Part shown: positions 6,474 through 20,918 of the stretch, one piece after another
Layout: each line of letters begins with the position of its first letter
Position numbering within the stretch: position 1 is the stretch's first letter
Source of the DNA: Eledone cirrhosa
Lineage: Eukaryota
Direction: 5' to 3'
Assembly: GCA_964016885.1 (NCBI GenBank)
Contig: OZ024743.1
Coordinates: 1,674,001 to 1,738,000, forward strand
Length of the DNA: 64,000 nt
The notes under the pieces: model-generated
The model's input: the letters and a program-made list of their open reading frames with translations, nothing else
Database searches by the model: none
What the model was told of the DNA's origin: nothing
Made by a program: the position numbers and the translations under genes

Positions 6474-6520
6474 ATGCAAATTAGTCTACCCACTACTAAT
6501 TTTCATAGAAAAAGCATATA
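6474..6520 (+). promoter_or_regulatory. Putative snRNA/U6-type promoter module (octamer, PSE-like TAATTTTCATA, TATA-like box) of family A
   Basis: ATGCAAAT at 6474-6481, TAATTTTCATAG, CATATA at 6515-6520; same spacing in families B and C. Confidence 0.55.
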
Positions 6521-6566
6521 ACGATATCTGCTTTTACAATTCTCCAGAGAAGCCGGAAGATGGGTA

Positions 6567-6611
6567 AATATTGCTGATGAGATGTAATAACATCGAAACT
6601 AGTCCAATATT
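6567..6611 (+). ncRNA. Type I hammerhead ribozyme (family A copy 1)
   Basis: AATATTG-CTGATGA-GATG TAATAA CATC-GAAA-CTAG-TC-CAATATT: stems I and II, intact core, palindromic stem III, GUC site. Confidence 0.93.
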
Positions 6612-7035
6612 CCTGTCTGGCCCTCTGGAGAATAGAGGAAATGTGTTTCCTTGAAAACTCGTATGACTCTAAAACCCGGTCCGCCTGTGTGGTTACATAC
6701 AGACTAGCTGACACTCACTGTAAAGTGTCTAGTGAAAAGCTGAGTACATGTACATATGTATACATGTGTGTATTTATATGCATACTAATACTTCCGTATA
6801 CATATGTAGATGTGCACTTTAACTTAATTGTTTAAGCGTCAGTCATACAAAAGTGAGTTAGAAGCGAAACGAAATTTAATTTCGTTTCGTTATTTGTTTT
6901 TATCGTTTCCGCTGAACCGGTGCGTACAATGACTCACGTTCTATGCAAATTAGTCTACCCACTACTAATTTTCATAGAAAAAGCATATAACGATATCTGC
7001 TTTTACAATTCTCCAGAGAAGCCGGAAGATGGGTA

Positions 7036-7080
7036 AATATTGCTGATGAGATGTAATAACATCGAAACTAGTCCAATATT
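7036..7080 (+). ncRNA. Type I hammerhead ribozyme (family A copy 2)
   Basis: Identical to 6567-6611. Confidence 0.93.
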
Positions 7081-7677
7081 CCTGTCTGGCCCTCTGGAGA
7101 ATAGAGGAAATGTGTTTCCTTGAAAACTCGTATGACTCTAAAACCCGGTCCGCCTGTGTGGTTACATACAGACTAGCTGACACTCACTGTAAAGTGTCTA
7201 GTGAAAAGCTGAGTACATGTACATATGTATACATGTGTGTATTTATATGCATACTAATACTTCCGTATACATATGTAGATGTGCACTTTAACTTAATTGT
7301 TTAAGCGTCAGTCATACAAAAGTGAGTTAGAAGCGAAACGAAATTTAATTTCGTTTCGTTATTTGTTATATATATATATATATATATATATATATATATA
7401 TATATATATATACATATATACATATACATACATATATATATAAGTATGTCTGTATACGTACATACATATATGTATACAGACGTACAGTAGCATGCATATA
7501 TATATATATATATATATATATACATACAGGTACACATACATATATGTACGTATCAGTTTAGCGGACGCTTATTATAACGCCCGCTTTGTTCGTTTGTAAA
7601 CAAACTGAACAGCCTGAATTTATGCCGTACGGTGTTAAGGCAACCACGTGACCTTTTTGTTCAACACTGACACAGGA

Positions 7678-7720
7678 ACGATGTACTAGTTTCAAGCTTG
7701 TTAGCTATCATCAGCACCGT
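7678..7720 (-). ncRNA. Type I hammerhead ribozyme (family B)
   Basis: Reverse complement ACGGTG-CTGATGA-TAGC TAACAA GCTT-GAAA-CTAG-TA-CATCGT; GUA site. Confidence 0.9.
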
Positions 7721-8163
7721 ATACCCTTCTGCCAGATGGTTGAACGTTCGAAAGTATATACTTTCCTTATGAAAATTAACGGCTGAGCAGCCTAATTTGC
7801 ATATCGAGTGAGTTCGGCCAGGCGTACCGAGAACGATAAGTTGTAATAAAATGAAAACGAAATTTCATTTCTCCCTCTTAGTACGGCACTTACTTAAATG
7901 TAAGTATGTATGTATACGTACATACATATATGTATACAGACGTACAGTAGCATGCATATATATATATATATATATATATATATATATATATATATATATA
8001 TATATATACATACAGGTACACATACATATATGTACGTATCAGTTTAGCGGACGCTTATTATAACGCCCGCTTTGTTCGTTTGTAAACAAACTGAACAGCC
8101 TGAATTTATGCCGTACGGTGTTAAGGCAACCACGTCACCTTTTTGTTCAACACTGACATAGGA

Positions 8164-8206
8164 ACGATGTACTAGTTTCAAGCTTGTTAGCTATCATCAG
8201 CACCGT
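8164..8206 (-). ncRNA. Type I hammerhead ribozyme (family B)
   Basis: Same motif, intact core. Confidence 0.9.
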
Positions 8207-18395: not shown

Positions 18396-19418
18396 TATTC
18401 AATTCTTTATCAATTTAGAATCTTTTCTCAAAGGCACATATACATACACCTCTTTAAAATATACCCATCTTCCTACCATACTTTAAAGGGCTTTATACAC
18501 TCTATAATACTTGTTTACTCATTACCCTCATTCTATCTTCACCTTGTAAAATCATTCATAACATATACATCTGTTTTTTTGACGTTAGAATATTCATCCG
18601 CAATCATTATTTTTTTCTCTCTATCATAAATCTTTTTAATCTCAATTTCATCCTTAATTTATTATTTTTTTTTCTCCCCATCAACGAACTCATTCTTAAT
18701 ACATATTAACTCTATTCGCATATATTATCAATTCCTCCAATATACAAACTTTAACTTCACATTATTTTTCTCAAATCCTTCTACACACAAACCTTAATAA
18801 TTTTTCTCTTCGTTAATTTTGAAATTGCCACAACATACCCTTTTTTGACGTTAGAATATTCATCCACAATTATTATTTCCTCTCTCTATCTTCATACATA
18901 AATTCCCTTCGTTAATTTTCAAATTCCTTTAATTTATACATTATCTTCCAACGGTTTCTCAACCTCTCTATGTAAAACAATATATCTTTCTCTCAGTTAT
19001 AAAAACTATCTCTTTCTCTCTATCACCCATCTCTCCCTCTCCACCTTCACTCTCATCTCCTCCCCCTTTTTTCATCCTTTCCACCCCCCCTCCCTAAATA
19101 AAATACTTTTTCCTCGCACATATCCTCCTTTCGTTAATTTTCAAATTTTTTTTTTAATTTATATATTATCTTCCAACGGTTTTCAACCTCTCTATGTAAA
19201 ACAACATATCTCCTCTCAGTTATAAAAACTATCCCTTTCTCTCTATCACCCATCTCTCCCTCTCATCTCCTCCCCTTTTTCATCCTTTCCACCCCCCCCT
19301 CTCTCTAAATAAAATATTTTTCCCAATATCACACATCAATCTAAAACCACTTTTCATATGTTGATTTAAAACTGCACTATCCACAAGTGTTTTTTAGCCT
19401 TCATATCATGTTCTCCTG

Positions 19419-19485
19419 TTTTATCTGATGAAAACACAAATATTATTGCATGATGATGTTTGTTTTTGAAATGCGCATAATAAAA
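19419..19485 (+). ncRNA. Type I hammerhead at the 3' end of the Penelope element
   Basis: TTTTAT-CTGATGA-long stem II-GAAA-TGCGCA-TA-ATAAAA; palindromic stem III. Confidence 0.85.
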
Positions 19486-19636
19486 TACATGGAACTCCTT
19501 TAACCATCTTTTGATCTTATATTATATATATATATATATATATGTATGTAAAAGGTAAACAGAAAAATAACAACACAATCGGTACAGTATATGGAAGGGA
19601 TATATTAGGTTAACGCTTGATATAGCAGGAAGAGAG

Positions 19637-19672
19637 TCTTAACGTTTCGGTCGCTAGTCCTTCATCAGAAGA
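19637..19672 (-). ncRNA. Minimal hammerhead in a solo Penelope pseudo-LTR (~19545-19860)
   Basis: Reverse complement CTT-CTGATGA-AGGACTAGCGACC-GAAACGTTAAG; related copies at 34372 (+) and 48624 (-). Confidence 0.75.
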
Positions 19673-20109
19673 AAGAATGAGAAATAAGATAGATTGAGGG
19701 GACGGGTGGTTTGGAAGTGGAAAAAATATCTTTAGATAAAAATAACAGTTCGATTCATGTTGACATCTCTTGAAAACTGTTGGCGCTGGATGTTTTGTGT
19801 ATGATTTATTTTTTTAGAAAAGTGGATGATGGAGCGCGTCTACCTGAAATGGAAATAAAACTGTTTTGTAAAAAGAGCTATACTTGTGCACGTGCGTAAG
19901 CATGTATGTGTGTGTGTATGTGTGTGTGTGTGTGTGTGTGTTATTATACGTCCGTACGAAGCTAAGAAGAAATGTGTGTGTATATGTGAGTAAAAGACTG
20001 TGTGCATGTAAGTACAAAGCTATGAGCAAAAGTATGTTAATATAAGGGTGTGTATGTGTGTATACAGAGCAGTGAAGGGAAAAGTGGGCCTGTATTATAT
20101 ATATATATA

Positions 20110-20298
20110 GGGCGGTGGATTGGCAGTGTCGGTAGAGGGTCGGACGCCATGCTTTCCAGCATAGTTACGTCCCTTTACGATCTGAGTTCAAATCCCGCCG
20201 AGGTTGACTCCGCCTTTCATCCTTACGGGGTCGATAAAATAAAGTACCAGTAATGCACTGGGTAATTGCTGGCCTTGTGCCTAAAGTAGAAACAATTA
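20110..20298 (+). mobile_element. tRNA-derived SINE (same family as 110-780)
   Basis: GAGTTCAAATCCCGCCGAGGTTGAC...GGGGTCGATAAAATAAAGTACCAG; near-identical copy at 39576-39760. Confidence 0.85.
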
Positions 20299-20869
20299 TA
20301 TATATATATATATATATATATATATATATATATATATTCATTCTGTCATTACTACCGCAGAGGTCCGAGGAGCTTTTGATTCTAGATCGATACAGATCGA
20401 ACCTTAGCTGATCAGTAGCGAAACAAGCGTCACAAACTAATAAACGTAATGAAGGAGTAACCATTCGTCCTTGTATTATATATATATATATATATATATA
20501 TATATATATATATATATATATATATATATATATATATATATATATATATGTATATATATATATATATATATATATATATATATATATATATATATATATA
20601 TATATATATATATATATATATATATATATATATATGTATATATATATATATAAATATATATATATATATATATATATATATATATATATATATATATATA
20701 TATATATATGTATATATATATATATAAATATATATATATATATATATATATATATATATATATATATATATATATATATATATATATATATATATATATA
20801 TAACAAATAGTATATTTCAGAAAATATCATATATTTTCACTAGCTCTGACAGTTGGCAGGTTAGCAGAA

Positions 20870-20918
20870 AACTGCACTGATGAAGGGTAATTACCCAGAA
20901 ACATTAGTGTCTGCAGTT
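20870..20918 (+). ncRNA. Type I hammerhead ribozyme (family C-related solo unit)
   Basis: AACTGCA-CTGATGA-AGGGT AATT ACCCA-GAAA-CA TTAG TG-TC-TGCAGTT; preceded by CATATA, 21 nt, GGCAG. Confidence 0.88.

Follow-up and report, generated by a model that had tools for sequence, protein, structure and literature searches.

Metazoan retrozymes of the non-LTR (long terminal repeat) type are presented, in the available portions of Cervera and de la Pena 2020 (PMC7229834) and of Li, Clavereau and Pollet 2026 (bioRxiv 10.64898/2026.07.22.740005), as tandem, low-GC, non-coding units that each contain a type I hammerhead ribozyme and occur alongside Penelope-like elements (PLEs). Units measure 170-400 nt in the former and 51-972 bp in the latter, and the same portions of these two texts describe no internal promoter. 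Here we report on families of hammerhead-bearing tandem units in the Eledone cirrhosa genome (assembly GCA_964016885.1, contig OZ024743.1, positions 1,674,001 to 1,738,000), a window of 64,000 nucleotides within which all coordinates below are given. By their anatomy the window families are non-LTR retrozymes, and their units carry an octamer, a core resembling a proximal sequence element (PSE) and a TATA-like box at the spacing of the host U1/U2 class of small nuclear RNA (snRNA) genes. We put at roughly 0.6 the probability that these serve as a built-in promoter for RNA polymerase II (Pol II). An earlier interpretation made from the letters of the stretch alone (the sequence-only reading) had drawn attention to these motifs and proposed a U6-like promoter of RNA polymerase III (Pol III).

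Hammerhead repeats with a promoter of their own are already known. Newt satellite 2 reportedly makes use of an octamer and a PSE. In the accessible parts of PMC2220036 and PMC6765202, which cite the original work (Coats, Zhang and Epstein 1994; Cremisi 1992), Pol II reads this tandemly repeated hammerhead satellite from an internal promoter of snRNA type, the combination proposed here, but it is one family in newt, whereas at least six related families and a class with U6 spacing are found in the present genome. The Sm-alpha hammerhead repeats of Schistosoma are described in the available part of PMC6765202 as transcribed by Pol III and have their promoter at the 3' end of cleaved monomers, so that only tandem copies propagate it; this tandem-only inheritance is shared, and the logic of the sequence-only reading was thus already in print. 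The schistosome repeats differ in their described Pol III transcription, and the same part of that paper mentions no snRNA-type upstream geometry.

Retrozymes, the Pol II snRNA promoter of newt satellite 2, the Pol III promoter of the schistosome repeats and the requirement for tandem copies are therefore established. Our search found no literature linking 'retrozyme' and 'snRNA promoter' or describing this case, with subscription journals and the notes of Repbase/Dfam lying outside its scope. Compared with the literature searched, what appears to be new is a genome-wide radiation with a hybrid octamer/Pol II layout and with promoters of two spacing classes that seem to match those of the host. 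This matters for how animal retrozymes reach high transcription in most tissues, the newt and schistosome cases being single families. For ~20,000 copies the prediction names a promoter, a start base and a polymerase, and a second class with the other geometry stands beside them, which makes the question directly testable.

The elements of the window are as follows.

6264..7367 (+): family A retrozyme insertion in (TA)n, consisting of 2.2 tandem units of 469 bp and an inverted 5' piece (6269-6346) and ending at an AT-rich hairpin
6473..6484 (+): octamer block of A, TATGCAAATTAG, a word identical to that in host U6/MRP/U6atac promoters; second copy at 6943
6490..6507 (+): PSE-like core of A, a weakly matching CCAC at octamer+16, together with TAATTTTCATA, which folds back onto the octamer arm
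6515..6522 (+): TATA-like box of A
6546 (+): predicted start of A, at the A of CAG (octamer+72)
6556..6626 (+): type I hammerhead of A with its core at 6574, cut predicted after 6604; Rfam match to HH9 at E=1.1e-4, under the gathering score
6864..6901 (+): AT-rich hairpin of A with T5 at 6897-6901; the array stops just past the next copy of the hairpin
7025-7095: second hammerhead copy of A, predicted cut after 7073
7381..8232 (-): inverted 5' part of the family B insertion, octamer 7802, hammerhead cores 7714 and 8200
8240..10546 (+): forward array of family B, 504-520-bp units with internal (TA)n in each, octamers 8677, 9197, 9701 and 10205
8676..8750 (+): putative promoter cassette of B, octamer block 8676-8687, TCAG core 8693-8696, TATATA 8719, GGCAG 8746-8750, predicted start A 8749
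8759..8802 (+): type I hammerhead of B, core 8765, predicted cut after 8795
10547..12758 (+): later insertion in (TA)n of a B unit, end of a Penelope-like open reading frame (ORF) near 10546-10902, hammerhead-like tail 12660
12759..12953 (+): rest of the B array with its 3' end, which lies in (TA)n beyond the AT-rich hairpin
13910..14028 (-): family C copy, octamer 14027, TCAG 14011, TATATA 13984, GGCAG 13957, predicted start A 13954, hammerhead core 13938
20803..21080 (right end approximate) (+): family D copy, 5'-truncated, CATATA 20828, GGCAG 20855, hammerhead intact with its core at 20877 and its cut predicted after 20911

The non-coding tandem units of A (469 bp, 37% GC) and B (504-520 bp, 32% GC) both lie in insertions within (TA)n that terminate just past an AT-rich hairpin, and the whole B array (8240-12953) is split by a 2.2-kb insertion with Penelope-like remnants. 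At 469-520 bp and with internal microsatellites they differ from the metazoan non-LTR retrozymes described, exceeding the range given in PMC7229834 and falling inside that of the preprint, as far as the available portions of these sources go. Nine of the 12 octamers in the window are located 88-100 nt upstream of a hammerhead core. The hammerheads are of type I, and their stem sequences differ between families with pairing kept (stems I and II covary); the family C hammerhead at 13938 is missing its 3' half, and the D copy, the solo copy of a fourth family, has lost its octamer and PSE core. An Rfam scan gave no match at gathering score, and the E-value scan returned mostly microsatellite matches to microRNA models. 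B units at 8259 and 9789 have CTGATTA in the ribozyme core and are predicted to be inactive.

The motif positions reported by the sequence-only reading were largely confirmed: the octamer ATGCAAAT at 6474 and 8677 (+) and 14027 (-), a hexamer downstream at 6515 (CATATA, 33 nt), 8719 (TATATA, 34 nt) and 13984 (TATATA, 35 nt), GGCAG exactly 21 nt past the hexamer at 8746, 13957 (-) and 20855, (TA)n upstream of the 20855 copy, and TAATTTTCATA common to A (6497, 6966) and B (8701, 9221, 9725, 10229). The last of these is the fold-back partner of the octamer arm, which explains why A and B share it. In A, the arm ATTCTCCAGAG does pair with CTCTGGAGAAT to enclose the hammerhead, but the 21-nt position (6542) falls three bases inside the arm and not at its start (6539). 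The equivalent of GGCAG in A is TCCAG, and its A occupies octamer+72, the same position as in B. Only in A and B is there a downstream hairpin with a T4-T5 run, the T5 of A lying at 6897-6901 and the T4 runs of B within 9126-9151; the hairpin of C is ~190 nt away and has no T4. The families, described as otherwise divergent, have indeed diverged, but they are relatives with sequence homology outside the promoter rather than independent elements. What had been overlooked is YCA(G/C) at octamer+16, the best-conserved element between octamer and TATA.

To place the cassette among the animal's own genes, the upstream regions of U6, U6atac, MRP, RNase P, 7SK, U1, U2, U3, U4, U5, U11, U12 and U4atac loci were compared. 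The polymerase that transcribes each of these small RNAs is general knowledge, and 22 distinct Pol II and 7 distinct Pol III upstream types were picked by hand, leaving out loci that lack the promoter (U6 loci L014 and L015, six insertion-bearing array copies and seven of the eight U6atac loci). All Pol II types except U4atac (21/22, covering U1, U2, U3, U4, U5, U11 and U12) have YCA at -55..-58 and a TATA-like box near -30. Among the Pol III types, TATG(C/G)WAATKAG at -76..-78 and TATA at -30 are found in five of the seven (three U6 types, MRP and one U6atac locus), giving an octamer-to-TATA distance of 46-48 nt; the other two, RNase P and 7SK, lack an octamer, place TCAG 32 and 33 nt ahead of TATA, respectively, and end in a T8 terminator. 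As a TATA-like box is present in both classes, it is the distance from PSE to TATA that separates them: mostly 25-27 nt from the YCA core in Pol II types vs 30-33 nt in Pol III types. None of the 22 Pol II types has an octamer at the position it takes in the elements (-72/-73).

This comparison also lays out the U6-type and U1/U2-type promoter architectures of the animal. In the accessible text of PMC1761439, Drosophila has two classes sharing a PSE, PSEA/PSEB and PSEA/TATA; their second element begins at position 30 where Pol II is used and at 34 where Pol III is, a 4-nt shift identical to the one seen here. In the host Pol III promoters examined (L073, L074, L171, L399, L001, L002) the arrangement is compact, with the octamer directly upstream of the PSE in U6, MRP and U6atac, while host Pol II snRNA genes have TATA-like boxes and an AAAA(T/A)CAGA 3' box. 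The U6 genes include a tandem array of ~1.8-kb units with variant 5' stems (L003-L030, C19:31.78-31.84 Mb), and in six examined copies of it an insertion between PSE and TATA shifts the octamer to -270.

Conservation of the cassette was assessed with a search pattern free of TATA or PSE terms, for which 100 matches were listed; 46 were kept as hammerhead copies and 54 dropped, 53 of these being the ORF of a LINE (long interspersed nuclear element), counted by eye, and one (L359) fitting no family. Among these first 100 matches listed, the first TATA-like box lies at octamer+40..43 in 35 of the 46 copies (mostly +42/43), against 41-43 in A, B and C; by the rule used, ten copies have no such box and one has it at +50. 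YCA(G/C) is at octamer+16 in 42/46 and CAG, with its A at octamer+70..75, in 39/46, at a fixed 27-31 nt from the TATA box. A, B and C agree with this short-spaced layout, the core of A being a weak match. The same pattern was rejected as a means of counting copies, since 53 of the first 100 matches listed were the chance-matching LINE ORF. Carrying ATGCAAATCAG ~107 nt upstream of CTGATGA, this high-copy ORF (L151, L165) imitates the cassette when patterns are searched for.

The cassette octamer TATGCAAATNAG is that of host U6, MRP and U6atac and fits the TATG(C/G)WAATNAG block upstream of the PSE. Its spacing is another matter: an octamer-to-TATA distance of 40-43 nt and a core-to-TATA distance of mostly 25-27 nt stand against 46-48 and 30-33 nt in host Pol III promoters, and neither the U6-like, type 3 Pol III label nor a start at the G of GGCAG is supported. 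The comparison with host U6, 7SK, RNase P and U1 promoters that the sequence-only reading had suggested was run, and it returned a host-snRNA-like layout with the spacing of the Pol II class. The result is a hybrid, i.e., the octamer of host Pol III genes combined with Pol II core-TATA spacing. This pairing is absent from all 29 host promoter types examined and sets the window elements apart from host snRNA promoters. Given the Pol II-type spacing, the start is predicted at the A at octamer+72/73 (6546, 8749, 13954), like the starts of host U1 and U4 at the A of a CA; this is 3 nt downstream of the G of GGCAG proposed earlier. A whole-promoter matrix built from host Pol II promoters had its best offset at +16 in 20 of 34 copies, but is not relied on because the search pattern preselected the TATA zone and one training row was anchored 4 nt off. 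No 3'-box-like site better than shuffles was found in nine of nine units, so that the cassette would work like an snRNA promoter without being an snRNA gene. A motif in some D copies, GGCCAATCAG, which we take to be a CCAAT box, was considered and rejected, as it is not conserved in other families.

Across the 3.0-Gb genome the octamer-TATA-hammerhead pattern has 20,435 matches vs 2 for the reversed pattern. The association is not due to chance, although copy number drives the number of matches. Once TAG-type A and B are mostly excluded, 956 matches are left, covering families C-F and variants.

A second class of hammerhead units has U6 spacing. The corresponding search gave 297 matches, which include spill-over from short-spaced families and a chance-matching LINE in addition to distinct hammerhead families, and 42 units, all outside the window, were chosen from them by eye. 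The TATA box is at octamer+46/47 in 40 of the 42, and YCA(G/C) at +16 in only four. Runs of at least four T (T4+) 55-85 nt past TATA+30, right behind the ribozyme, occur in 33/42 of these units vs 4/46 of the short class, for which a wider interval was allowed and the first 100 matches listed were used. The 42 units represent few lineages, as one old family supplies most of them. Because both host geometries recur among the repeats, one of them with a terminator, it can be argued that the motifs act as promoters and that the window families are not of the U6 type. The U6-spaced loci (L152, L153, L156, L157, L160, L169, L172-L207; C1, C2) have predicted Pol III RNAs of ~75-80 nt, reaching barely beyond the hammerhead, and several contain partial tandem repeats of ~340-370 bp.

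From these sequence comparisons, the cassette very probably is, or recently was, a working promoter and, if so, Pol II is the probable polymerase. Several observations weigh against this interpretation. The host Pol II matrix scores A (-13.2) and B (-7.0) poorly at +16, with their best positions elsewhere, and C at 18.7, and the adjacent octamer is seen in host Pol III genes only. The 5' truncation points, scattered in both families (63 copies of B and 29 of A, the latter from the first 30 loci listed), do not pile up significantly at the predicted start (B 6/63 at +70..74, p=0.28; A 2/29, p=0.53). Past the start, T4 runs are scarce or absent for 200-390 nt in units of A, B and D, and A4 runs are common, as would be the case for Pol III templates. 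Stems around the hammerhead already set in 7-15 nt before the predicted start. In human cells, according to the accessible text of PMC11696126, small PSE-TATA differences are not enough to determine the polymerase, and Pol II can read Pol III promoters. As the families share ancestry, the 46 copies may amount to perhaps six or seven lineages; no match to a parent PLE pseudo-LTR (pLTR) was found in the one young autonomous Penelope-like family examined, which does not share the cassette; and the modelled octamer-arm hairpin would be a constraint at the RNA level, either rival or additional to a promoter.

The nearest alternative is the U6-like type 3 Pol III promoter of the earlier proposal, with transcription from the G of GGCAG to the T-run at the hairpin and occasional read-through giving promoter-containing monomers. 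It would account for the TATGCAAATNAG block, which is beside the PSE in 5/7 host Pol III types and in 0/22 Pol II types at that position, for the absence of T4 over 351 nt (A) or 393 nt (B) past the start, for T4 in the first 200 nt of only 5/31 D copies, for insertion 3' ends that cluster near the hairpin and T-run, and for a weak excess of B 5' ends at +66..70 (8/63, p=0.07). We nevertheless regard it as unlikely, since the octamer-TATA stretch falls 4-5 nt short of that in each of the five host Pol III promoters with an octamer, since human U6 tolerates only a 2-nt deletion there according to the available portion of PMC11696126, and since the TATA box is 27 nt from the G and not 30 as in U6. 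T4 occurs within 200 nt in 9/11 E, 6/8 F and 4/9 C copies, three T-runs per unit would have to be crossed for the promoter to be carried, and exact U6 spacing is kept by other families instead. The motifs might otherwise be kept for folding or protein binding of the retrozyme RNA, or be the relic of an ancestral promoter, with arrays transcribed by read-through from nearby genes. The octamer-to-PSE stretch does fold back in most short-class families (A z=-8.1; B, C and E ~-1 to -2.3; D ~+0.6), whereas host promoters do not (z -0.1 to 1.2); folding of the entire A unit reaches z=-9.2, stems span the predicted start, and the families are kin. Pairing, however, lets both arms change, yet the octamer arm, CA core and TATA are invariant across families while the pairing partners vary; the core YCA is in a loop in A and E; and folding does not predict the recurrence of two host spacing classes, one with a matching terminator position. 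This account therefore seems improbable to us.

Descent of the cassette from a Penelope-like pLTR, as a conventional Pol II (octamer/TATA) promoter or as a splice acceptor whose conserved CAG would end an intron, is very improbable. Penelope pLTRs do contain promoters and 5' introns (in the available part of PMC8557442), Xenopus retrozymes resemble PLE pLTRs (in that of bioRxiv 10.64898/2026.07.22.740005), and there is a pyrimidine-rich stretch upstream of the CAG. However, the CAG keeps a constant distance from TATA (27-31 nt), other PLE-type hammerhead tails in the window are without the cassette, and the young Penelope-like family with an 821-aa frame has no octamer in its pLTR; a lone same-strand octamer lies ~1.7 kb past the ORF in one of ten full-length loci of that family, and its only similarity to seven retrozyme families is in microsatellites and SINE-like (short interspersed nuclear element) sequence.

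With a Pol II promoter as the preferred reading, the following mechanism can be proposed. Directed by SNAPc, which a POU factor bound to the adjacent octamer would assist, Pol II would initiate 40-60 nt upstream of the ribozyme cut, at the A in the conserved CAG. As the unit lacks a 3' box, its transcript would cross three T-runs (A and B units each have three T4+ runs between the hairpin and the next start) and the promoter of the next unit, and two hammerhead cuts would free a monomer that contains the promoter sequence, folded as hairpins, and could be circularised. A Penelope-like reverse transcriptase (RT)/endonuclease would copy the circle or a multimer into (TA)n, beginning near the AT-rich hairpin and giving tandem or inverted arrays, so that any insertion longer than one unit would regenerate the order of promoter, then ribozyme. 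Of the original proposal, the view that each unit has its own promoter of snRNA-gene type gains support from the host comparison, and the view that this promoter can be inherited only through tandem or circular copying is supported too; 'self-transcribing replicon' overstates the case for non-autonomous retrozymes that need a host polymerase and, likely, a Penelope-like RT.

A possible, though doubtful, history is that the retrozyme radiation captured a host U6-type promoter and that one lineage switched polymerase by means of a PSE-TATA spacer 4-5 nt shorter, with the octamer retained. If this were true, a Pol II snRNA-type promoter without a 3' box would read through T-runs to give multimers, and it is the short-spaced families that have ~20,000 matches, vs at most a few hundred for the U6-spaced class. 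The repeats would then be a natural mutational scan of how SNAPc promoters choose between Pol II and Pol III, and might also act as a large sink for both SNAPc and POU factors.

Mobilisation by PLEs is proposed from insertion anatomy only. In the accessible texts, Penelope-like elements form inverted 5'-truncated copies and partial tandems and target microsatellites (PMC8557442), and reverse transcription of Poseidon begins within its RNA, at a stem-loop (PMC11167929). The retrozymes resemble them in these respects, i.e., inverted 5'-truncated copies, partial tandems, (TA)n targets and a likely internal stem-loop start of reverse transcription, but their units are without an ORF, and, unlike in the published metazoan cases, no parent PLE pLTR was found in the one family compared. 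In that young family, 150 copies were scored at ≥94% identity, many with the 821-aa open frame, and a Pfam search of eight PLE-like fragments gave one sub-threshold GIY-YIG match.

The window contains a 5'-truncated copy of this family at 17145-18395 (+) (family loci L213-L251), its pLTR having a hammerhead-like core and no octamer cassette. Further Penelope-like ORF remnants, several in (TA)n, are at 10547-12758, 13202-13549, 37486-38382, 41025-41495, 45154-46089 and 54271-55512, and minimal hammerhead-like cores without the cassette at 12660, 16494, 19668, 34375, 35733, 46266, 48653 and 61660. A diverged family A copy with the full cassette lies at 63102-63753 (+), with its octamer at 63395, and a family E copy without the promoter at 46546 (-), beginning at the base of its own long stem. 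Some family D units elsewhere (L123, L128, L140, L145, L150) have an extra octamer-plus-core block upstream of the main one, and parts of unit A are covered by DNA contigs of three other organisms. Two LINE-like elements occupy 25894-33258, with endonuclease and RT-like frames of up to 876 aa and a 570-aa ORF1-like frame, as judged by eye.

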